From a virus (Duplodnaviria > Caudoviricetes): a DNA stretch of 34,569 nt. The notes beneath the pieces are model-generated. The model saw only the letters and a list, made by a program, of their open reading frames with translations. It was not told the origin of the DNA and did no database searches. Of the stretch, positions 2,548-28,711 are shown one piece after another (position 1 is the stretch's first letter; each line of letters begins with the position of its first letter). Location: IMG/VR virus record IMGVR_UViG_3300037509_000105, positions 1-34,569 of that record; one strand, written 5' to 3'. The translations under genes and the position numbers were made by a program.

Positions 2548-3726
2548 TAGATCGTCAAGGCTCATCTTTAGGTTGTTGCTCGTCAAAGAGAGATGCGACG
2601 CATCGAAGTGAACCTGAGCCCCGAAGAAGTGGCGCTCCTTAAGAAGAAGATCGCCTCCGGAACGTCTCCCGCCCGGGAGATCCAGCACGCCCGCATCCTC
2701 CTGGGCTCGTTCGAGGGACTCGGCGACGAACAGGTCTCTCGCGAAGCGATGGTCTCCAAGCCGACGGTCTGGAGCGTGCGCCGGCTCTACGCGGAGGGCG
2801 GGCTGGACGCGGCGCTCCGTCGCAAACCCCAGCCGCCCCGCCCGGAAAAGCGGAAGGTGACGGACGACACGGAGGCGCGCCTCGTCGCGCTGGCGTGCTC
2901 GGCGGCTCCCGAAGGAAGGAACCGCTGGACGCTCCGCCTTCTTTCGGACCACGCCGTGCGTTTAGGCTACGCTCCTGCGGGGCTCTCCCACGAGAGCGTG
3001 CGCCAGGCGCTCAAAAAAACGAGCTGCGTCCTTGGAAAACCGAGCGCTGGGTGATCCCGCCGAGAGAGAGCGCCGCCTTCGTCGCCTGCATGGAGGACGT
3101 GCTGGACATCTACCTTGAGCCGCACGATCCGCAGACGCCGGTGGTGTGCCTGGACGAGATGCCGGTGGGGCTCGTCGACCATGCCCGGGAGCCGCTGCCC
3201 GCGCAGCCCGGGAAAACGAGGAAAGAAGACTACGAGTACGTGCGGGGCGGCAGCGCCACCGTCTTCGGCGCGCTGGACCTCAAAGGCGGGAGACGGCTCC
3301 TGGAGGTCTCCCCGAGAAGAGCCAAGGAGGACTTCGCCCGCTTCGTCAAGAGGGTGGTGGACGAGCTTTGCGCGGGGGCGGAGCGAGTAAGGCTGGTGCT
3401 CGACAACCTCTCCACCCACTCCAAAGCCGCTTTGTACGAGGCGTTCCCTCCCGAAGAAGCGATGCGCCTTTGCAAGAAGCTCGAGTTCCACTACACGCCC
3501 AAGCACGGCTCATGGCTGAACGCGGTGGAGCTGGAGTTCGCCGCCTGCCACAAGCAGTGCGTCGGAGGCAAGCGCCTCGGCGGTACGGAGGAGCTGTGCC
3601 AGACGATAAGAGCCTGGCAGGACGAGAGGAACGAAGCCCGCGCCACCGTCCGGTGGACCTTCGACGTCCCTGCCGCCCGGCAGAAGCTCCACCGGATCTA
3701 TCCTAAAAACGAAGCTTGACGGTCTA
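2548..3726 (+). mobile_element. IS630-family insertion sequence
   Basis: Inverted ends TAGATCGTCAAG..TTTAGG / CCTAAAAAC..CTTGACGGTCTA enclosing a two-ORF DDE transposase. Confidence 0.93.
2593..3719 (+). CDS. IS630 transposase (orfA 2593-3054 HTH plus orfB DDE, joined by a -1 frameshift)
   Basis: HTH and RWTLRLL in orfA; VVCLDE, LVLDNLSTH and SWLNAVE in orfB; A7 slippery run at 3013-3019; orfB is in the -1 frame. Confidence 0.93.
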
Positions 3727-4125: not shown

Positions 4126-4302
4126 CGGGGGAGACCTCGAGGGGTGGCACCGGCCTGTCCACCAGCGTCAACGTGCGCGCCGGACGCGAGTACGGTCACG
4201 CCCCGAATTTTCACCACTGCGCCCACGAGGCACGAACGCAGACCCCTTGCCCCGGCCCGCACCTCTCCTATCGACGGAGCCGGGGATTTTTCGAGGTTCC
4301 CC

Positions 4303-4785
4303 ATGAACAAGTACGCCCCTTGGCTTTCAGACGAAGGCTTCCACGCCTTGCCCGTCTCCGAGCGGGCGCTCCTCATCGCCGCCTACTTTTGCGACCGGCT
4401 CAGGGTCAAGGAGGCGGGGCGTAACCGGGGGCGCTGGGTGGAGGAGTTCCAGAAGTCTGCGGGGGTGGAGCCCGGGGCCGCTTGGTGCGCTTGCTTTGTG
4501 ACCTACTGCCTGAAGGCGGCGGGCTACGCGGGGAAGATCCCCGGCGGTCCGGCGGCGGTGCGCAACTGGTTCCACTTTGCCCAGGCGGCGGACCAGCCGC
4601 GGCGCGGCGACCTTTTTTGCTGGCTTAACCCGGACCGGACGGGGCACATCGGCTTCGTCACCCGGGTCGTCGGCCCGCTCATCCACACGATCGAGGGGAA
4701 CACGGACACGGACGGGACGCGCGAGGGGGACGGGGTGTACCGGAAGATCCGCACGAGGGCAGGGAAGAGGTTCCTGCGGCCATGA
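4303..4785 (+). CDS. CHAP-domain endolysin/amidase
   Basis: AWCACFV (catalytic Cys), GDLF, GHIGFV (His), TIEGNT; ATG 4303 with GAGG upstream. Confidence 0.88.
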   Translation: MNKYAPWLSDEGFHALPVSERALLIAAYFCDRLRVKEAGRNRGRWVEEFQKSAGVEPGAAWCACFVTYCLKAAGYAGKIPGGPAAVRNWFHFAQAADQPRRGDLFCWLNPDRTGHIGFVTRVVGPLIHTIEGNTDTDGTREGDGVYRKIRTRAGKRFLRP

Positions 4786-7526: not shown

Positions 7527-7697
7527 ATGCGAAGCAAGAAGGCAAACAACCATGACGCAGACCCTCAAGAGCGGACGACGGGAGAGCCCGAAGTCCTCCA
7601 AGAAGCCGAAGAAGTAGCGCCCCTGGACGGCATGACGCCGATCGAGGAGCAGCCGGGCTACGCGCCGGGATGCCGGCCGGTGTTCGGGAGGGGCTAG
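7527..7697 (+). CDS. Small acidic hypothetical protein (56 aa, below ORF-track cutoff)
   Basis: AAGGAG upstream; MRSKKANNHDADPQ..PVFGRG; its TAG overlaps the GTG of the next gene. Confidence 0.55.
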   Translation: MRSKKANNHDADPQERTTGEPEVLQEAEEVAPLDGMTPIEEQPGYAPGCRPVFGRG

Positions 7698-8392
7698 TGG
7701 AGGCCATCGTCGACGAGAGCGCGATCCAACTCACCCCCGCCGAGGCCCCGGCGGTCGAGGTGGAGCGGGCGAAGGCCCACCTGAGGCCGATGGCGAGCAT
7801 CGTGGGGGTGGAGATGCGGCCGGCTCCGGAGGAGCTTGGGGGCATCCTGCTGCCCGAAGAGGTGGCGGACCAGTTCCGGGCCGACGTGGGGACGGTGGTG
7901 GCTTCCGGCGACTCGGAAGTGGAGCCCGGCGACACCGTGATGGTGCGCTACGGCGACGGCAAGCAGATCGACGGCTTCGCGTGCGGCGGCTATCAACCTA
8001 AAGAGCAGGTCCGGCTGTACGGCATCGCCGGGGGCAACGACGACGCGAACGACGCCGAGAGGGTGCCGTGGTGGGACTCGGTGGTGGCGGTGCAGCGGGA
8101 AGCGTGGCAGCCCACGGGGGACAACGTCTTCGTTCGGCGCGACCCGGCCCCGAAGCAGGAGGGGAGCATTTGGCTTCCCGACGAGGAGCAGACCCGCCCG
8201 GACACCGGTACGGTGGTGGCGGTCGGACCCCGCCTCCAGTGGACGTTCGTGGACGGTTCGGGAGTCCGGCGGTTCTTACGGCCGGGCGACCGAGTGGTCT
8301 TCCACCGCACGGGCATTTTGCACACCGAGATGGACAGCGGCCTGGACGTGGCGATCATGCGCGACCTGTGCGTGTACGTGGTGATGGAGTGA
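7697..8392 (+). CDS. Tandem two-domain GroES/Cpn10-like co-chaperonin
   Basis: Domain 1 LRP..GGILLP..GTVVASG..VEPGDTV; domain 2 QPTGDNVFV..GSIWLP..GTVVAVGP..LRPGDRVVF. Confidence 0.8.
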   Translation: MEAIVDESAIQLTPAEAPAVEVERAKAHLRPMASIVGVEMRPAPEELGGILLPEEVADQFRADVGTVVASGDSEVEPGDTVMVRYGDGKQIDGFACGGYQPKEQVRLYGIAGGNDDANDAERVPWWDSVVAVQREAWQPTGDNVFVRRDPAPKQEGSIWLPDEEQTRPDTGTVVAVGPRLQWTFVDGSGVRRFLRPGDRVVFHRTGILHTEMDSGLDVAIMRDLCVYVVME

Positions 8393-9283: not shown

Positions 9284-11155
9284 ATGCTCAACTTGGACTT
9301 ATCCGGACTTTTCGGCCGCAAGGAAGCCTTGCCCGCGGGCTTCCGCACGCCTGCCGATCGCAAGGAGCAGGCGGAAAAGCTTTGCCAGATGATCGAGGCG
9401 GGGACGGGCCAGAAGGGCACCCTGCCCCTTCGCTGGGAGCGCAACGAGCGGATGTACCGGAACGATCCGCCCAAGCGGACGGGGAGCCCGTACGACGGGG
9501 CTTCCGACGTTCACGACCCGCTGGTGCAGCCTAAGCTGGACGCGCTGACGAGCAACGTGGTGGGCACCATCACGGCCCAGGACCCTTACATCGTCACCCG
9601 GGTGCGGGGGTCGCAGGACCGGGCCTACATCCTCGAGCAGGACCTCCAGTTCGCGTTCGAGGAGGGGCGGCTGAGCGAGCGGCTGCGGACGCTGTCGCCC
9701 ATCGTGGGCTACTGCGGCAAGGGCGTGCTCCGGGCGCACTTCGAGGAGCGCGAGGACGGCTTCGCGGGGATGACGTTCGAGGTGGTCCACCCTCGGGAGT
9801 TCATCGCTTACCCGGCGGCCGTGCGGGAGATTCCGAAGATGCGCATGGTGGGGCACCGGATGCCCCCGTTGCGGGTGCGCGAGATCAAGGAGAAGCAGAA
9901 GGCGGGCGTGTACTTGGACGACGGGCAGTCCGTGACGGGCGGCTACGATCCCGAGGGGCAGCAGACCCGCTTCCTGACGACTTCGGCCGCCGGGATCGTG
10001 GACAACGAGGACATGCTGGTGGAGTGCTACGAGGTGGTGTTCCGCCACCCGGGGCAGGACGGCAAGGAGCGCTGGCTGCTGGCGACGGTGAGCCTGAGCG
10101 ACCGGGCGCTGCTCAAGGTGGCGGAGTACCCGTACTCCCGGCCCTGGTACTTCGACTTCGCGTTCAAGCGGGAGCACGGCGGCTTTTGGTTCCAAGACTC
10201 GGTGGCCCAGGACCTCCAGGGGCTCCAGCTCGAGATCAACGGGCTGCACAACACGCTCCACGACGGACAGCAGATGGCCTCGTTCGGCGCGACGTTCATC
10301 GATGCCTCGGCGATGCCGGAGGGGGTGGAGAAGACGGCGCCCGGGCAGATCATCCCGGTGGACGACCTCAAGGGGGTGCAGGCGTACTTCCCGCCTTTCC
10401 GATCGCAGGAGATCCCGTTTTTAATGCAGTACATCCGCCAGCGGGCGGACGAGGTGGCGCGGATTCCGGCGACGGCAAGCGGGGGGCAGTTCCGCGGGAG
10501 CATCACGGCGACGGAGGCCTCGCAGATCGCGGCGGGCGGCCAGACCGGCATCAACGAGTTTATCGCCAACTTCGGTTTGGGCATGGAGGACCTGGCGCGG
10601 TTCTGCATCGAGTGCCTGAAGACCAACTTCGCCTTCTGGAAGCAGGCGCACGGGGAGGTCGTGAAGGCGGAGAGCCCGGACGACTACACGAAGATCGTGA
10701 GGATCGACCTCAACGGCAAGTCCCCGTCCAACACGCCCCAGGCGCAGTTCGGGATGGCGTCCACGCTGCTGCAGGTGGCGGGGACGCTGCCGCCCGAGGT
10801 GACGGGCCTCGACGCGTACCAGCTGATCAAGGCGCTGGTCCAGAACTCCGGCCTCCAGAACGTGGAGAAGATCCAGATGCCGGAGGAGCAGTTCGCCCAG
10901 ACGCAGCAGCGAGCGGCGATGCCCCAGCAACCGGCGATGGCCGGGGCGGCGATGGCCGCAGGAGACCCTTATGGAGCGACTGAACCAGCCCTCGGAGGAC
11001 CCGGAGGAGCTGATCCGGCAATGGAAAGCCTTCTTCAGCAGTTGGCAATGGCAGCGGCTCACGGAGGGCTGGGAGGCCCAACTGGAGAGCCAGCGCTCGG
11101 TCTTGGAGAAGCCCCGCCCGGAGGAGGATACGAACCTAACCCGGGGCAGGGTTAA
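9284..11155 (+). CDS. Portal protein (podovirus-type)
   Basis: 623 aa after terL; LQLEINGLHN, PGQIIPVDD, GSITATEASQI; Q/A/G/P-rich tail. Confidence 0.85.
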   Translation: MLNLDLSGLFGRKEALPAGFRTPADRKEQAEKLCQMIEAGTGQKGTLPLRWERNERMYRNDPPKRTGSPYDGASDVHDPLVQPKLDALTSNVVGTITAQDPYIVTRVRGSQDRAYILEQDLQFAFEEGRLSERLRTLSPIVGYCGKGVLRAHFEEREDGFAGMTFEVVHPREFIAYPAAVREIPKMRMVGHRMPPLRVREIKEKQKAGVYLDDGQSVTGGYDPEGQQTRFLTTSAAGIVDNEDMLVECYEVVFRHPGQDGKERWLLATVSLSDRALLKVAEYPYSRPWYFDFAFKREHGGFWFQDSVAQDLQGLQLEINGLHNTLHDGQQMASFGATFIDASAMPEGVEKTAPGQIIPVDDLKGVQAYFPPFRSQEIPFLMQYIRQRADEVARIPATASGGQFRGSITATEASQIAAGGQTGINEFIANFGLGMEDLARFCIECLKTNFAFWKQAHGEVVKAESPDDYTKIVRIDLNGKSPSNTPQAQFGMASTLLQVAGTLPPEVTGLDAYQLIKALVQNSGLQNVEKIQMPEEQFAQTQQRAAMPQQPAMAGAAMAAGDPYGATEPALGGPGGADPAMESLLQQLAMAAAHGGLGGPTGEPALGLGEAPPGGGYEPNPGQG

Positions 11156-11228
11156 GGCCCTTCGGGGCCTGCTGGCGACCGAGAACGACGTTTTGACCCG
11201 CATCGAGAAGACAGGAGCACAACCATGA
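10971..11228 (+). CDS. Small head-assembly-region protein overlapping the portal tail
   Basis: AGGAG upstream; helical 85 aa with RGRVKAL; ATGA overlap with the scaffold gene. Confidence 0.7.
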   Translation: MERLNQPSEDPEELIRQWKAFFSSWQWQRLTEGWEAQLESQRSVLEKPRPEEDTNLTRGRVKALRGLLATENDVLTRIEKTGAQP

Positions 11229-20472: not shown

Positions 20473-21668
20473 TGAGCCAGATCGCGCACAACCTTTTCAA
20501 TCTGTTCTCTCAGTCGCTCCGCCCTGGGGGCACGGGTGTTACCGGGCTCTCGCCGTCGGTTGGCGCTGACCGGGGCTTCCGTTCGTTCGGCGGCACGTCG
20601 TACGTGACCGAACCCTCTCCCGAGGCCACTACGGCGTTCGCGCCCCAAGACCCGGTTCTCCCGCCTCCGAACCCGCTGGAGGAGCTTATCGGGCAGCTAC
20701 AGTCATCCTCGCGGTTCGACCAACAGGCGCAGGAAGACTATCAGAAGGCGGCGGCGATGCGGCGGCAGGCGTACCAGACACCGGTGCCTCGCCCCGTCCA
20801 GCCGGCCTTCCGATCCATGGATCTATTGGGCTTGCTCGGCGCGTTCGACCCGTCGGGGCAGTTCCTCCAGGGCTTCATGGGCGCAAAGCAGGCCAAGGAC
20901 GACCAGGACACCCAGTACGGCCAGCAGGCGTTCCAGACGCGGCAGCAGGGGCTGCTGAACGAGGCGGAGCAGCACGACCGGATGGGCGCTCTGGCGAGGC
21001 AGCAGGGGCAGGACGAGCACGCCCGGGTGATGGACCGCGTCAACCTTGCGTGGAGGCGCCAGCAAGAAGCCGAGGAGAATCGGCGCTGGGACACTGGTCA
21101 GCGCAATCAGAACTTCCGCTCCATCCTGGGGGACCTCGGCAACGTCACCAGCGAATCGCAGATCGAGGGTATCAAAGCCGTCGCAAAGTCCATGGGCATC
21201 GAGAAGGACCCCGCTCAGTTGCAGTGGGCGCGGGACGGGATGAGGGACCGGAAAAACCGGGAGGCGGCCTTAAGCTTGGCTCCGCGTCTGATCAGCGCGA
21301 TCTCAAAGGACGGAGCGGCGGCGGCACGGGGCATCCAGGGCGACACGCTGTTGCGGATTCTGGAGAAGTACCCGGAAATCGTGCCCGACGCGGTTTGGCT
21401 CAGGACCCAGGTGGAGGAGCTACGCAGGAACACGCCCCAAGAGACCAAGACCCTTGGGGAGACGACGGGGGTTCCGGCGAATCCGGCCAAGACCACGGCG
21501 CCGACCGGCCGCAGCCGACCGTTGACTAAGGCCGAGCGGCCCCTTGGCACCCTTCCGGCGGCGGGGCCTAACGGCCAGAGCGTCACGGTGCGGGCTCAGC
21601 CCTCCAGGTCCGGCCGACAGGTCAAGCTCCCTAGCGGCGCGACCGTCACCATCGGGAGGCCCCGATGA
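20472..21668 (+). CDS. Putative ejection / internal virion protein
   Basis: TGATG coupling; Q-rich helical protein with FLQGFMG. Confidence 0.65.
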   Translation: MSQIAHNLFNLFSQSLRPGGTGVTGLSPSVGADRGFRSFGGTSYVTEPSPEATTAFAPQDPVLPPPNPLEELIGQLQSSSRFDQQAQEDYQKAAAMRRQAYQTPVPRPVQPAFRSMDLLGLLGAFDPSGQFLQGFMGAKQAKDDQDTQYGQQAFQTRQQGLLNEAEQHDRMGALARQQGQDEHARVMDRVNLAWRRQQEAEENRRWDTGQRNQNFRSILGDLGNVTSESQIEGIKAVAKSMGIEKDPAQLQWARDGMRDRKNREAALSLAPRLISAISKDGAAAARGIQGDTLLRILEKYPEIVPDAVWLRTQVEELRRNTPQETKTLGETTGVPANPAKTTAPTGRSRPLTKAERPLGTLPAAGPNGQSVTVRAQPSRSGRQVKLPSGATVTIGRPR

Positions 21669-24600
21669 GCCCGAAGGTGCTGACGTTCGACATCGACGGC
21701 CACAGGGTTCCCGTGCAATGGAGCGAACCGCGCGACCCTACGGCCGATGAACTGGAGGCCATCGAGCGGGAGGTGCGGGAGACCGTGCCCAAAGCGCCGA
21801 AGTCCCGAGGTCCGAAGCCGCGGGCCCTCAAGCCCGCAGCGACGCTCGACCAGCTCCGCACCCGCAAGGGGGAGCTGGAGGCGACCGTGCGCCAGATGGA
21901 GGTCGCGGGCCGAACCGCGAAGTTCCAGCGGGTGGAGCTGGCGAACGTCTACGGGCAGATGCGCGAGATGCAGCCGCCCCGGCCGAAGCCAGCGACTGCC
22001 ACGTCACCGACGTACAACGGGCGTCTCCACCGTGCGTTCACGGTCAGGCCCGGGGCCAATGTGAACCGGCTTACCGACGAGGCCAAGAGCGTGCTTTACG
22101 ACGTGGGCGAGTACGTCCACAAACTCGGCGGCCGCGCGATCATTACCAGCGGCAAGCGGAGCGGGAGTATCCCGTCCCATCACAACGACGGCAATGCGGT
22201 GGACCTGGTGCTGCACGGGCTGGACATGCAAGGGATCGCGGATCGGCTGCGGGCGATGGGCTACCGGGCGGAGTTCGAGCGCAAGGGGCAGGTCAACCCC
22301 AACGGCTCGGTTTCCACGGGCGACCACATCCACATCAGCCTGCACCGACCCTCCGGGAGGAAGCGGGGCGACGGCTCCATGCTGCGCCCGCCCGCGGACA
22401 TGCGCCACGCCAAGCCGCGGGTCCGCAACGTCAAGTACGATCCCGACCCGCTGGCACTGCTCCGGGAACTCGACACCCCCGAGTCCAGGGCCAAGGGGCA
22501 GGCGTGGGCCGACGAGTTGAGCAAGACCCTCGGATTCGGCAAGAAACCCGACGCTAAGAGACCCGTCGCCAAGGAGCCCCTGAAGAACCTTACCGGTGCG
22601 AAGTCTCCGGGGCTCCTGGCGATCGAAGCCTACTTTAGGGGCCAGCCGAAGTCTCCCGCCCCGGATGGGCCGGCACCGCTCCACCCGTACTACCGGATGC
22701 GGGAGGCGGCGAAGAGGGACGCTGGCGAGAAGCGCGAGGCCGCACTGGAGGCGGTGCGCACGATGAAGGGCCACCCTGCCTACGTCGGCAGCGACGCGGA
22801 AGCGCTCGACATGGCGACGGCCTACGGCTCGGTGAAGGCGCCCAACACCCGCAAGACCAGCTTTGAAAGCGGGGTCAATAGGGCGCTGAGGGGGGGCGAG
22901 AAGGTTTTCGGCGGCATCGCCACGTCCGCCTTCCCCGGCGGCATCACCCGGAACCTGACCCCCGACCAGCGGGAGCGGCTCGCCATGCAGACCGGCGCGG
23001 GACTGGGCATCCTTCCCCTCGGCGGCATTAGCGACGCCATGCCGTTCATCCAAGCGATCCGGACGGACGACGAGACGCCGATCTTGGACGCGATCAGGGA
23101 GACGAAGGATTCCCTGAACCTCGGGGATCCTAAGAAGACTCCCTACGAGAAGTTCGTCAGTGCCGTTTCCTTGGGCATGCTCAGTCTGGGCTTGGCGCAC
23201 GGGGCCAGGACCGCGCTGCGCCTGGGCAAGCGGATCAAGGTGGAGCCCGGAAAGGGGCTGGTCGACCTTGAGGGATACTTGGAGGACACGAAGGTGCGGG
23301 CGGCGTTGCAGGACGCGGGCGTCTCGCCCGACGAGGTGTCCGCCGCCATCAGGGGCGGATACGGCGCGAACGGGACCCAGGTTCCCGGCAGTCGCCGGGC
23401 GGCCTTTGAGAGCGCCCTCGTCCGCAAGGCGACGGAGGCGGGAATACCCAAAGCGCAGGCCGTCGCGGTCACCAAAGCGTGGCGCAGGGTGGCGCAGACG
23501 TGGGCGGCCAACACCGGCAACTCCATCGACGACGCCTACGCGAGAGTGGCGCGGATCACCTTGGACGAGGACGCGCCCAAGGGGGCGCTGTTCCAGATCA
23601 TGACGGCCCGCGAGTCCGACATGGTCAGCCCAGAGGCGATCGAGCAATGGCTATCGAAGGCGGGCAAGAAGAGCGGCGAGACGATCAAGGTTGGCGTTGC
23701 TCCGTACGACCGCACCGGAGTGGGGACCTACGAGAACGCCCGAACGGGGGCGACGGCCCCGATGCAGGGCGGCGCGGGGTTCGGCAAGCAGACCCACGAG
23801 GGTGCGGCACTCGCGTTTACCACCCAGGACAAAACGTCCGGAGCCAAGAAAGTGGTCGAGGACCACGGCACGGACGGCTACACACTTATCATTGGACAGG
23901 GTCGAAGCTCGGTCCTGACGAACACTCAGGCAAGCCGGAACGTGGTGGAGGAGATGAAAAGAGCCTCCGATGGCGTTGCGGCCCTCGAGCAGGGTTATTT
24001 GGACCGCTACAACAGCGCGTTCGACCCCAGGCACATCTCACCCGACATTCTGGAAGAGCACGCGATCAAGAACCCCCTAAAGCCACCCTCGGGGCCGGAG
24101 TTACAGAAGCTCGCGAAGGGTTGGACCCGCGACGTCGCCACCGTGCGCAAGTACGAGAAGCGGGAGACCCGTCCGGGCAAGTTCGAGTCGGTGCTTAAAG
24201 AGGAGAGGGAGGTCGTGTACCTGCGGCCCCCGATTGCCCGGTCGTGGGACGACGTTCTGCGCGACGCGCGGGACCTGACGTACCCCGTGCGCGGGGTGTT
24301 GCACGACAAACTGCTGCCGAAGGCGAAGCGCGAGCAGCTCGGGAAGAGCCCAGCCCATTACGACGAGGTGTACGACAACATGGTCGAGCCTATCTTCGAC
24401 ATTGGGGAGACGGGCGACATCATGGGACTCGTCCGCCAGGATGGGAGGTACGGAAACGACGGGCTGGCGCTCGGGGTCGCCGATGGGAACCACCAGAGCT
24501 ATCCCTGGATGGCAACGGGGGAGCACCACGGCATGATCGCCTCGAAGCCGGGGGAGGGGATCAACCTCTACGACATCGTGGTCCCTAGCCAGCGGAAAGA

Positions 24601-27600
24601 GGTCTACGACGCAGCGGTAAAGAACGCCGGGGGAAAAGTACCGACGCGCAAGCAGATCGGCGGCCAGGTGCTGCGAGTACTCGGTAGGAGTGGGTGGGCC
24701 GAGCTGCCCGTCGATGCGATCGAGAGGATCGGGTACTACCTGGAAGATGCAAAATCTAGGCGAGGATCTATCGGAGACGGACAAGGAGTGGCTGGCCAGG
24801 AACTGGGCCGCTATTCCCCTACCGATCCGCGACTTGATCGAGGACTCGCTCGGGTTCGAGACGAGGAACGAGGTGGTGTCGATGGCCCTCAACCCGCGCC
24901 TGATGGAGCCGGTTCCACCACCCTCCACCAGCGCGCCGACGGAGTAGTCAAGGCCGCCGTCACTTTGGACGAGGCGGAGCGGGCGGTCCTGCACCTCTTC
25001 ACGGGCAAGACCGACGTCTCTTCCCTGCTGCACGAGTCGTTCCACGTCTGGCGCAGGATGCTGCCGGAAGCGGACCTCGCGATCCTCGAGAAGCACTTCG
25101 GGGACGTCCGCTCCGTCAAGGCGGAGGAGGCCTTCTCGCGCGCCGGGGAGCGCTACCTGCGCGACGGCAGGGCCCCCGACCCCGAGCTCCAAAGGCTCTT
25201 CGACCAGTTCAGCGGTTGGCTCAGGGGCGTCTACGCGAAGCTGAAGGGAAGCCCGCTGGAGGCGGAGGTCCACCCCGACGTGCGGGGCGTCTTCGACCGG
25301 ATGTTCGGCGGCGAGGATGCGCCCGCAAAGGCGAAGGGGCAGAGGCCCGCGAAGTCAGTCGGGCCCGGAGAGGGCGGCGGTGCGCTCAGCCTGGCATTGC
25401 CGACAGGCCACGTCGACCCGAGGACGGGCAGGGCGCTGGACGACCTCGTGCCCGACGGGGCAGAGCCGCCGCCACCCGGCGGCGCACCCGATCCGACGGT
25501 AGGAGCCCAGGCCAAAGACCTGGGCTCTTCCATTTTGGAGCCCGATCCTCTGCCGGAGGCGGCCCCTGGGCGGGGCGGCGGCAACCGGGTCTTCACCCAG
25601 GAGTCGTACCTTGCCGCCAAAGAGCGGATCCGGCGGCGGCGGGGCCGCGCGGCGGCCGGCGTCGATCCGGAGGAACTCCGGGACTGGGCCATCGTGGCGG
25701 GTCATCACGTGGAGTCGGGTCTTCGCGAGTTCGGCGCCTGGTCGAGGGCGATGGTCGACGAGTTGGGAGAGCGGGTCCGGCCCCACCTCGACTCGCTCTG
25801 GAAGCGGGTGAGCGAAACGCTGGACGACCACCGCCGGATGGCCGAAGAGGACGCGGAGTTGGCGCGCGCTCGCGGTGCCGGTGGTTCGGGACCGGTTCGA
25901 GCCGTGCCGGACGAGGAAGGCTTCATGCCTTTCCGCGAGTTCGACGATATCCCCAAGGATGAACTGTGGCCCCACGCCCAGAGGGCGGCCGAGCGACCGA
26001 TCACCGTACGCCTCGATCATTTTCCAGAGGAGGTGGGCTACGAGGCCTACAAGGCCGCTCAGAAGGATGCTGAGAAGTATTTCAAAGCCCATTTAGACAA
26101 AGAGTGGGTTAGGGTTCCCGGATTCGGCAGGGTTCACTTCAGCTCAGCCACGTGGGAGAAGTTAGCCAGAGGAAACTTCACGACCTTCAATCTGATCCCG
26201 GAGATCCCGAGGCTCCTTCGAGCGGCCCAGTACATGTGGAAGGAGAGAGCCAAGCGGCCGGAGGGAGGTTACTGGATTGGAGCGCACCGGCTCGTCGTGC
26301 GCGTGAAAACGCCGAAGGGGGACTTCAACGTCTGGATCGTCGTGCGCGAACCCTCAGACGGGAGGTTCTACTACACGCACTTCTACACGGATGCGGATGC
26401 CCGTTGGTTTGGAAATCTCGGAGACATGCCCGAAGGGCACCCATCCCGATCGTCAACGGGCACCAATGATTCTACACGATCAGAGGATGCGGCGGGGCTC
26501 ACGGATGAGGCCGGAAGGCAACGAGGTCCCGACGACGGCCCCGAAGGTCCGGGCACCGGCGGGGGTGCGTCCTCTATCGCGCAGAAAGCCGAGGCCGACG
26601 GTGTCAAAGGCGCGGAAAGGGCGCTTTCTGCCCTTGAAGACCTCTTCCGTAGCGATGGAAATGGGCCTAGAATAGTTAAAGAAGGCGGAAGCGAGTATGA
26701 GGGACGAGAAGGAAGCTACCGGCGACGAGAAGGCACCAACCCCGAGCAAGAGCGAATCGCCCGCGGAGAACTTCTCGCTCTTCTACATCGAAGAGCTTCC
26801 GTTCTGGCCCGCGCCATTGCGCGGAGAGCCGTCGGAGAAGGAGGAGACGCCCTCCTCCACCAGCGAGTCGAGTCCCCCGAAGACGTAGCCACCCTCGCCC
26901 AGATCGTGAGGAACGCCCAGTGGGAGGTGTTCCGATACCTGTTCGTCAAGGACGGCAAGGTAGTCCACGAGTCGGCCGTTTCCGCCCGGCTTCCGGGTGC
27001 GACCCAGGTCTTCGTCAAGGACGACCTGCGTGAACTCGCCCAGTGGGTCCGTGGGCTAGTCGAGAAAACTGGCGCGGATACAATTTGGGCGCTCCACAAC
27101 CACCCGAGCGGTCGCGCGAACCCGTCCCCACAAGACATTGACGTGACTCGGAAGATCACTGCCTTGATCCCCGAGATCAAGGGCCACGTGATCATCGACT
27201 CCAACGAGTACGCAGTCATCCAACGGGATGGGACATCTGAGGTGATCGCCAAGGACTTCCACCACGGAGGCCCCGATCCACTCCACACGCCGGCGGTGCC
27301 TCACGTGGCTCTAGGGCGACAGATGCGGAGTGTGGCCGATGTCGCCGAGACCGCGGCACTCTTCAAGCACCCAGAGGGCACATCGCTGCTCATCGGGCTC
27401 GACGCGGGCAGTCTCGTCCGGAGCGTGACCACTGTTCCGTCAAGGTTCCTCGAAGGAGACACCGAGCGGTTGCCAGCGTTCTTGCGCCGGTTCGGCCGAC
27501 AGACGGGGTCCGTCGCCATTTTCATCAGCGCAGAGCCGGCACTGTTCGACAAGATCGGAACGGATCCCGCCTTGGCCGATCGACTCGCTAAAGCAATTCG

Positions 27601-28711
27601 TACGCGTCTCGTAATGGACGTTATCGCACCGGACGGAAGGCGCGCCTTGGACAACATGGGCGGCCGCCCGGTGGACCGCGAGCCGGGGGTGTACCTCGGG
27701 ACCAGAATCGACGGAGCGACCCGTTGGGTCCGCGACTCGGGGGGCGACGACGGGACCTACTCGAAGGCGAAGCCGCATCTCGACGCGGCGCTGAAGGCGT
27801 TCGTCGACTCGGGCAAGAGTGCCGAGGATTTCGCCCGCTTCGCGCGGGAGAACCTTGGTCCTGCCGCTTCGCGGCACCTTGACCGGTTCCTCCGGGACAC
27901 CCCAAGGAGTGGGTCGTCCACCGGTACAAAGAACGCCACCACGAAATCCGAGCGAGTGGAAAGGGGTCTGCCCGAGCCACCGAGGACCTCGCCGCGGAGT
28001 GGGAGGGATGGGGCTTCGGCTCTGGAAGTCCCGACGCACGAGTCGGCGGCATCCCCTTCGCCAACGGCGAGGACACGGGCAACCGTCGCGGGGGAGATCG
28101 AGTACCTCAGGCGTCGGCGGACAGGTCGCGCGTCGGGTACGGGCTCGCGAAGGCGCGGCTCGGGCGACGTCGACCCGGAGGACCTGCGCGTCGCGAAGGA
28201 CCTGGCGGTCCGTTACGTGGAGTACGGTCACCGCTCCTTCGCCGAGTTCTCCCGGGAGATGCTGACCGAGTTCGGGACGCCGATCCGCCCGCACTTGAGG
28301 CGACTCTACGGCGATGGGCACACCGGCGCGGGAGACCCCGTATCGCGGCTTATCCGGCTCGTCGACGGCGCGAGGACAGCGCGGGGAGAGGCGGGAGCGC
28401 CGGCCGGCGTTCTGGGGAGACCCGGCGGGCGCGATGGTTCCCCTCGGTCGACCGGGGCGACGAAGGGGCAGTTGCCGAGCGTGCGGTCCACGCCTCCGGA
28501 AAGAGGGCTGACGGCGGAGGAGCGGGACGACCTCTTCGTTATGGCCATGAAGACCGACGGGCTCCAGCCGTCCCAAAAGCTCAACGCCCAGCGGGCGCTC
28601 GCCACCCTGTTGGGAGGGGAGTTGCCGACCGCGGGCCAACAGGCGCTCCTGCAGCGGGTGTACGGCCCGGATCTGGTCCAGGCGATCTTGAGGAAGCGGA
28701 CGATGGGGTAG
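21665..28711 (+). CDS. Large polyvalent (ejection-type) protein: M15/LAS peptidase, unknown domain, HExxH zincin-like, LPD3-like, JAB/RadC
   Basis: ITSG.R..SHHNDGNAVD..HIH (~22140-22335); LLHESFH (25031); LPD3-like ..VVREPSDGRFYY (~26060-26390); E..HNHPSG...PS..D..GHVII (27095); repeated GVDPE..G..F..F...M...G..IRPHL helices. Confidence 0.8.
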   Translation: MSPKVLTFDIDGHRVPVQWSEPRDPTADELEAIEREVRETVPKAPKSRGPKPRALKPAATLDQLRTRKGELEATVRQMEVAGRTAKFQRVELANVYGQMREMQPPRPKPATATSPTYNGRLHRAFTVRPGANVNRLTDEAKSVLYDVGEYVHKLGGRAIITSGKRSGSIPSHHNDGNAVDLVLHGLDMQGIADRLRAMGYRAEFERKGQVNPNGSVSTGDHIHISLHRPSGRKRGDGSMLRPPADMRHAKPRVRNVKYDPDPLALLRELDTPESRAKGQAWADELSKTLGFGKKPDAKRPVAKEPLKNLTGAKSPGLLAIEAYFRGQPKSPAPDGPAPLHPYYRMREAAKRDAGEKREAALEAVRTMKGHPAYVGSDAEALDMATAYGSVKAPNTRKTSFESGVNRALRGGEKVFGGIATSAFPGGITRNLTPDQRERLAMQTGAGLGILPLGGISDAMPFIQAIRTDDETPILDAIRETKDSLNLGDPKKTPYEKFVSAVSLGMLSLGLAHGARTALRLGKRIKVEPGKGLVDLEGYLEDTKVRAALQDAGVSPDEVSAAIRGGYGANGTQVPGSRRAAFESALVRKATEAGIPKAQAVAVTKAWRRVAQTWAANTGNSIDDAYARVARITLDEDAPKGALFQIMTARESDMVSPEAIEQWLSKAGKKSGETIKVGVAPYDRTGVGTYENARTGATAPMQGGAGFGKQTHEGAALAFTTQDKTSGAKKVVEDHGTDGYTLIIGQGRSSVLTNTQASRNVVEEMKRASDGVAALEQGYLDRYNSAFDPRHISPDILEEHAIKNPLKPPSGPELQKLAKGWTRDVATVRKYEKRETRPGKFESVLKEEREVVYLRPPIARSWDDVLRDARDLTYPVRGVLHDKLLPKAKREQLGKSPAHYDEVYDNMVEPIFDIGETGDIMGLVRQDGRYGNDGLALGVADGNHQSYPWMATGEHHGMIASKPGEGINLYDIVVPSQRKEVYDAAVKNAGGKVPTRKQIGGQVLRVLGRSGWAELPVDAIERIGYYLEDAKSRRGSIGDGQGVAGQELGRYSPTDPRLDRGLARVRDEERGGVDGPQPAPDGAGSTTLHQRADGVVKAAVTLDEAERAVLHLFTGKTDVSSLLHESFHVWRRMLPEADLAILEKHFGDVRSVKAEEAFSRAGERYLRDGRAPDPELQRLFDQFSGWLRGVYAKLKGSPLEAEVHPDVRGVFDRMFGGEDAPAKAKGQRPAKSVGPGEGGGALSLALPTGHVDPRTGRALDDLVPDGAEPPPPGGAPDPTVGAQAKDLGSSILEPDPLPEAAPGRGGGNRVFTQESYLAAKERIRRRRGRAAAGVDPEELRDWAIVAGHHVESGLREFGAWSRAMVDELGERVRPHLDSLWKRVSETLDDHRRMAEEDAELARARGAGGSGPVRAVPDEEGFMPFREFDDIPKDELWPHAQRAAERPITVRLDHFPEEVGYEAYKAAQKDAEKYFKAHLDKEWVRVPGFGRVHFSSATWEKLARGNFTTFNLIPEIPRLLRAAQYMWKERAKRPEGGYWIGAHRLVVRVKTPKGDFNVWIVVREPSDGRFYYTHFYTDADARWFGNLGDMPEGHPSRSSTGTNDSTRSEDAAGLTDEAGRQRGPDDGPEGPGTGGGASSIAQKAEADGVKGAERALSALEDLFRSDGNGPRIVKEGGSEYEGREGSYRRREGTNPEQERIARGELLALLHRRASVLARAIARRAVGEGGDALLHQRVESPEDVATLAQIVRNAQWEVFRYLFVKDGKVVHESAVSARLPGATQVFVKDDLRELAQWVRGLVEKTGADTIWALHNHPSGRANPSPQDIDVTRKITALIPEIKGHVIIDSNEYAVIQRDGTSEVIAKDFHHGGPDPLHTPAVPHVALGRQMRSVADVAETAALFKHPEGTSLLIGLDAGSLVRSVTTVPSRFLEGDTERLPAFLRRFGRQTGSVAIFISAEPALFDKIGTDPALADRLAKAIRTRLVMDVIAPDGRRALDNMGGRPVDREPGVYLGTRIDGATRWVRDSGGDDGTYSKAKPHLDAALKAFVDSGKSAEDFARFARENLGPAASRHLDRFLRDTPRSGSSTGTKNATTKSERVERGLPEPPRTSPRSGRDGASALEVPTHESAASPSPTARTRATVAGEIEYLRRRRTGRASGTGSRRRGSGDVDPEDLRVAKDLAVRYVEYGHRSFAEFSREMLTEFGTPIRPHLRRLYGDGHTGAGDPVSRLIRLVDGARTARGEAGAPAGVLGRPGGRDGSPRSTGATKGQLPSVRSTPPERGLTAEERDDLFVMAMKTDGLQPSQKLNAQRALATLLGGELPTAGQQALLQRVYGPDLVQAILRKRTMG
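24747..24947 (+). CDS. Candidate nested (+1 frame) small acidic protein
   Basis: MQNLGEDLSETDKEWLARNWAAIPLPIRDLIEDSLG.. reads as a normal protein where the host frame becomes a G/R/D-rich linker. Confidence 0.5.
   Translation: MQNLGEDLSETDKEWLARNWAAIPLPIRDLIEDSLGFETRNEVVSMALNPRLMEPVPPPSTSAPTE

Follow-up and report, generated by a model that had tools for sequence, protein, structure and literature searches.

The giant gene of a podovirus-like phage contig raises the question of whether a second, small gene can be read within it in another frame and, if so, what connects the product of that gene to the protein that surrounds it. The window analysed here is the entire phage contig, 34,569 nt in length. 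Its giant gene (21665..28711, + strand) encodes a polyvalent protein of 2348 aa downstream of virion genes, and a frame of 66 codons (24747..24947, + strand) lies nested in it, +1 relative to ORF 21665-28711. An initial annotation had described this frame as a gene overprinted on a linker, and had proposed that it encodes an antidote that moves together with the preceding effector domain as one in-frame cassette.

The genes upstream of the giant gene on the + strand include terminase, SU10-type portal, capsid and adaptor genes, according to Pfam and PHROG matches. A DDE_3 transposase-like gene (2895-3719), a CHAP-domain gene (4144-4785) and a Cpn10/GroES-domain gene (7670-8392) were also observed on this strand. 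The giant protein itself carries an LPD3 domain (aa 1462-1570, E 3e-11), a RadC-like RadC/JAB domain (aa 1737-1849, E 2e-7), a DarB-like PHROG match and a zincin-like HExxH domain of the MPTase type (24950..25315, + strand). Residues H1123, E1124 and H1127 of the latter, together with a glutamate in a later helix (E1155), are invariant in 12 of 12 aligned sequences, and the domain matched 45 GenBank phage records, including a relationship to Bbp10 of Bordetella phage BPP-1. Nearer the N-terminus (aa ~172-226; window 22180-22345, + strand) lie His/Asp motifs (HHNDGNAVD...DHIHIS) with no Pfam hit, which presumably resemble those of M15-type zinc peptidases. With MPTase, LPD and RadC domains in one polypeptide encoded among late and virion genes, the giant gene fits, by its predicted domains, the polyvalent protein class of phages. 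Homology to BPP-1 Bbp10-type genes, together with what the available passages of PMC5512222 say of this class, suggests that virions would carry the giant protein and deliver it on infection.

The nested frame closes a large insert in the giant protein. A conserved helical segment (aa 580-627; 23402..23545, + strand), matched by a profile from relatives at E 2e-5 and 10.8 bits against this one protein, forms the left side of the insertion site and is followed by an LFQ motif at 23588-23596. In 'empty' relatives (e.g. L130 and L135) the helical segment runs almost straight into the HExxH domain. The insert of the window spans about 445 aa between LFQ (aa 642-644) and an LHQ motif (aa 1087-1089; 24923-24931) and consists of a cargo domain and then the small gene, ahead of the HExxH domain. 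The cargo domain (aa 641-1027; 23585..24745, + strand) is an orphan with normal host-frame codon usage, and the single-sequence model of its aa 801-1031 reached a pLDDT of 41, an unusable fold. Downstream of it the host frame passes into a linker rich in G, R, D and P (aa 1028-1094; 24746..24946, + strand), which is the -1 reading of the small gene. The small frame had been noted to begin where the host sequence turns into such a linker, and the composition bears this out, with G+R+D+P at 0.52 in the linker versus 0.29 in each flanking domain.

Both ends of the nested frame coincide with boundaries of the host protein. Its ATG at 24747 falls at host codons 1027/1028, at the last codon of the cargo domain, and its TAG (24945-24947) overlaps the two Val codons immediately preceding host K1096-A-A-V, beside the anchor where the initial annotation had placed it; this host motif matches, by eye, the 'KGAV/RG.I.F' with which the HExxH domain of relatives begins. 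Two alternative in-frame starts lie upstream of 24747 (ATG 24714 and GTG 24690), both outside the codon signal described below. The predicted 66-mer is indeed acidic (D+E 0.18, net -7), with R+P+S at 0.26 and hydrophobic residues at 0.30. The 16 shadow +1 ORFs of at least 60 aa average 0.48 for R+P+S, 0.02 for D+E and 0.13 for hydrophobic residues, with extremes of 0.40, 0.08 and 0.23, and the described difference from R/P/S-rich shadow ORFs thus holds. The length of the ORF is ordinary, 1126 of 5827 67-codon +1 windows being open. AlphaFold, run on the single sequence, returned a model with two predicted helices (residues 10-19 and 25-47; mean pLDDT 71, and 79-84 over residues 11-40) and a Pro/Ser/Thr tail that overlaps the beginning of the host domain that follows; Foldseek searches of BFVD and PDB with this model had no hit at E<=0.001. 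Contigs of four runs (X1, X3, X4 and X6, the first three of which may be the source of this DNA) span the ORF identically and with no indel, which makes an assembly error unlikely, and no strain variants were found in 8 runs. Exactly this 66-aa protein had been called by a gene caller on a 1052-nt JGI/IMG contig, which is codon evidence of the same kind as ours and not evidence of expression.

For the codon model, 14 other genes of this phage (4947 codons) served as the training set. Over the ORF, this model gave +0.91 bits/codon for the +1 frame and -0.80 for the host frame; shadow windows (4009 in +1, from the 14 other genes) averaged -1.05±0.30 bits/codon. The sole comparable shadow peak (0.89) was the tail of the portal gene where it overlaps ORF 10971-11228. 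Host GC3 over the ORF was 0.45, the minimum of 5844 other windows being 0.66 (three overlap regions left out). When synonymous codons were resampled with the host protein held fixed, none of 20000 trials reached the observed score with each of the three codon models derived from this phage. Summed along the sequence, the +1 signal has its turning point at 24741-24747 and fades out near 24912, shortly upstream of the LHQ motif; over its final ten residues the 66-mer runs out across constrained host sequence. We therefore consider a coding origin of the 66-codon frame very probable. A stop-free +1 frame is itself expected in 44-79% of resamples, so the intactness of the ORF says little about present selection.

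The same signature bears on which of the two frames came first. Since genome-like codon usage sits in the small frame, the small gene is likely the older one, and the linker a newer -1 reading through it. The term 'overprinted' in the initial annotation thus probably inverts the order of events: codon usage favours an older small gene that was captured by read-through. The -1 reading of ordinary genes of this phage is open in 3742 of 5827 windows (64%), and one such case is already present among the virion genes, where an 85-aa ORF with a good Shine-Dalgarno (SD) site (10971-11228, + strand), likely a real gene, starts inside the portal ORF and the portal frame reads 61 codons through it in -1. 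This pair shares its geometry with the nested ORF, here as a terminal overlap.

A second nested +1 ORF, acidic and of 63 aa (26697..26888, + strand), occupies the linker before the JAB domain and ends just past an LHQ motif. It has a codon score of +0.71 at a host GC3 of 0.53, a score reached in 0 of 20000 resamples under each local model; an SD-like AAGGCGGA stands at a spacing of 7, and its start is the weakest-structured of 26 +1 ATGs. No relative of it was found among the loci fetched for comparison. Two further +1 frames of the giant gene were noted: a 94-codon ORF after LPD3 (window 26391-26675, + strand) covers a stretch with a mildly positive +1 codon score but is R/P-rich, and ORF 28314-28511 was dismissed as a nested gene, with no coding signature (-0.08).

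To place the arrangement in a wider context, an alignment of 12 HExxH domains was used to fetch related loci (the best 80 of 517 viral and the best 80 of 138 prokaryotic confirmed ones, and likewise 12 of the 45 GenBank matches), giving a non-redundant set of 149 host frames, each 800 aa or longer, that of the window included. Nested +1 ORFs scoring above 12 bits numbered 23, of which 7 near the start of the host frame were dropped as tails of upstream genes. The remaining 16, out of 1567 internal +1 candidates in the 149 giant genes, comprise 14 in 14 other loci and the 2 of the window. None of 458 candidates in the +2 frame exceeded 12 bits, or even 8; this is an imperfect control, as +2 yields fewer candidates (458 versus 1567). 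The ORFs of L083, L084 and L115 have their stop 12-20 codons ahead of this HExxH domain, as does the ORF of the window; together they make up 4 of 21 candidates with an end at that place. Among 15 upstream domains scanned, five were GGDEF, two DUF7178 and one GNAT, the rest giving weak or no hits. The five nested ORFs behind GGDEF-type domains of giant virion genes lie at L064:9024-9272, L080:6738-6956, L084:9750-9941, L106:3258-3449 and L115:9702-9899, and three others (L036:12321-12593, L013 at ~324-608 and L010:1877-2083) follow one common unnamed domain. Several nested ORFs of relatives have clear SD-like motifs, judged by eye, before their own ATG.

Two observations from these loci indicate what the codon score detects. 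PHROG 2423, an ordinary family of small phage proteins without assigned function, was matched by 2 of 15 nested peptides: the ORF at L020:10458-10592, behind the HExxH domain, is a near full-length member (E 8e-20), and that of L064, behind its GGDEF domain, is a weak one. In the homologous pair L064/L080, identity is 37 of 69 residues in the +1 frame and 20 of 69 when the host frame is compared, and the nucleotide differences divide 26/19/31 over the +1 codon positions; this suggests that the +1 frame can be the conserved one in such analogues. Family membership in L020 and +1 conservation in L064/L080 together argue that the method finds real genes, and the nested arrangement is a recurring one.

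Searches with the products of the insert returned little beyond the insert itself. The 66-mer found only itself in a metagenome protein search (lengths 36-116), no relative in IMG/VR, the ESM Atlas, Pfam/PHROGs or the fetched loci, and none among GenBank phages, where the best E was 6. The cargo domain likewise found only itself among 1.84 billion representatives, a single identical contig (L002) in JGI metagenomes, no further relative elsewhere, the fetched loci included, and no Pfam or PHROG family. Its Atlas hits, at 0.84 or lower and with DarT/ART clusters at 0.82, count as no more than leads. A motif of other giant phage proteins matched the window alone.

Several explanations other than a working partner gene must be weighed. 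That the frame is a chance shadow ORF, or results from a compensating pair of indels (in assembly or in evolution) that shifts part of the giant protein out of frame, is improbable: the region was picked by eye, and 7.6% of resamples under a no-bias codon model reach the observed score, but none of 20000 did so under the three phage-derived models, host GC3 is far below that of all 5844 other windows, four assemblies agree, and the layout recurs with ATG and stop in 14 other loci. Even less credit is due to a programmed +1 frameshift at the end of the domain, which would yield a product of ~1093 aa ending in the 66 residues. The switch of frame does coincide with the domain end, with AGG and CGA codons next in the host frame; against this, the codon signal begins at an ATG, and analogues have SD-like motifs before their own ATG, one of them being a full-length member of a free-standing family. 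An unlikely though more serious alternative is a fossil, that is, a once-separate gene that was fused through and now persists only as untranslated linker DNA, not yet drifted to host-frame codon usage. The absence of stops is uninformative here, no relatives are at hand to show selection, and the translation signals at 24747 are weak, with no Shine-Dalgarno at normal spacing before this ATG and 11 of 26 +1 ATGs of the giant gene scoring equal or better. However, SD sites are also absent from 3 of 11 ordinary genes of this phage (terminase, portal and 14311), analogous nested ORFs are conserved in the +1 frame between diverged phages, and the +1 signal matches in strength that of the gene at 10971, which is likely real. 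The start region of the 66-aa ORF is AT-rich and within the weakest-structured 10% of 680 positions. A promoter-like match at 24396-24423 is not evidence, one match having been found where 0.3±0.6 were expected.

If the 66-mer is made, it may be a partner of the adjoining domain or an expressed passenger, namely an ordinary small phage gene captured as spacer DNA, with a product whose job is unrelated to that domain. We regard the passenger as somewhat unlikely. It would agree with the nesting of PHROG 2423 members behind both GGDEF and HExxH domains and with the ease of -1 read-through, exemplified by the portal gene. Against it speak the ATG placed exactly at the last codon of the upstream domain, as seen in the window and in L010, L013, L036 and L083, and the pair L036 and L013, which keep related +1 peptides behind the same upstream domain (z 8.8 among 171 pairs), the downstream domain apparently being shared too. 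No relationship to the 66-mer of the window was seen for peptides that have just the downstream HExxH domain in common with it (z <= 0.7). None of 36 short inserts holds a nested ORF, versus 6 of 56 inserts of at least 200 aa; the other 50 large inserts have none, and a DUF7178-like domain in L008 (by eye) also stands without one. The apparent co-occurrence with GGDEF in '6 of 6' cases was discarded as evidence for partnership, being mostly circular: five are the seeds, and the sixth scores only 1.8 bits. The proposal of an in-frame effector and antidote cassette therefore stands in part. A coding-type gene lies in the linker and ends the inserted cassette, and the layout recurs in related giant genes; position alone is no proof of a cognate antidote, as PHROG 2423 behind different domains illustrates.

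The explanation we tentatively prefer is that of a real small gene that arrived with the orphan domain and encodes a small, acidic, helical partner, likely binding this domain and restraining or chaperoning it while the giant protein is synthesised. The domain gene and a small downstream gene would have entered as a pair at the insertion site before the HExxH domain. Loss of the stop of the domain would then have let the giant frame run on through the small gene in -1, a read-through made easy by the open -1 frames of this genome and yielding a G/R/D/P-rich spacer. The small gene would have kept its own ATG, its TAG now being supplied by the opening codons of the HExxH domain. Its product would be made from late mRNA by internal initiation without a strong Shine-Dalgarno site and would keep the domain folded or inactive in the cell that makes the phage, whereas the giant protein, once packaged, would enter the next host on ejection without this partner, and the domain would be active there. 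A possible but doubtful generalisation is that polyvalent virion proteins swap internal effectors as in-frame 'effector + antidote' cassettes, in which the antidote gene doubles as linker, protects the producer cell and stays behind at ejection; aa 641-1027 would then represent a new effector family with a 66-aa inhibitor.

Annotation treats each giant phage virion gene as a single CDS, and a small linker gene is apparently hidden, and thereby missed, in 14 of 148 other relatives (about 1 in 10). If the nested products are cognate partners, they would explain how toxic injected enzymes can be made in the current host and shuffled without breaking the giant frame, and would supply an inhibitor candidate for each effector; the codon flip would then serve as a general means of locating effector ends and inhibitors. 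Even as passengers, they would illustrate how simply nested genes can arise in GC-rich genomes, via read-through of a neighbour's usually open -1 frame.

Among known systems, polymorphic toxin-immunity cassettes, such as the MuF toxins of temperate phages, combine a variable domain with a small variable gene that follows it; the toxin is C-terminal and the immunity gene separate. The 66-mer is likewise encoded directly downstream of a variable domain, but this domain (aa 641-1027 of 2348) lies in the interior of its protein, and the small gene is nested. Polyvalent proteins, as characterised in the available passages of Iyer et al. (2017, PMC5512222), are encoded by giant multi-domain genes next to those for the virion and combine zincin-like MPTase, LPD3 and RadC/JAB domains, and small neighbouring ORFs are likened there to the recombining cassettes of polymorphic toxins. 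The combination of MPTase, LPD3 and RadC/JAB is the same in our giant protein, the cargo domain of which matches no Pfam or PHROG family. The word 'overlap' has 0 occurrences in the main text of PMC5512222, and its available passages contain no linker-nested gene or cognate immunity protein. No report of genes nested in polyvalent-protein linkers was found in open-access PMC and bioRxiv, and the arrangement is apparently unpublished. The closest geometrical parallel is offered by embedded two-component spanins, in which Rz1 of lambda lies in the +1 frame of Rz (passages of PMC6139136; on the same topic, PMC5295617). According to the passages available from PMC6139136, embedded spanins are proposed to have arisen from separate genes, one route being stop loss followed by read-through. 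Our locus resembles Rz/Rz1 in that a small gene with a coding signature is contained wholly inside a larger gene on the same strand in +1, and a read-through origin is likewise the one we infer. The 66-mer differs from a spanin in having no Cys for a lipobox and no visible membrane anchor. It also differs from Rz/Rz1 in its setting, the host stretch here being a linker inside a protein of 2348 aa, and in that no fixed pair is formed, the nested genes changing from cassette to cassette.
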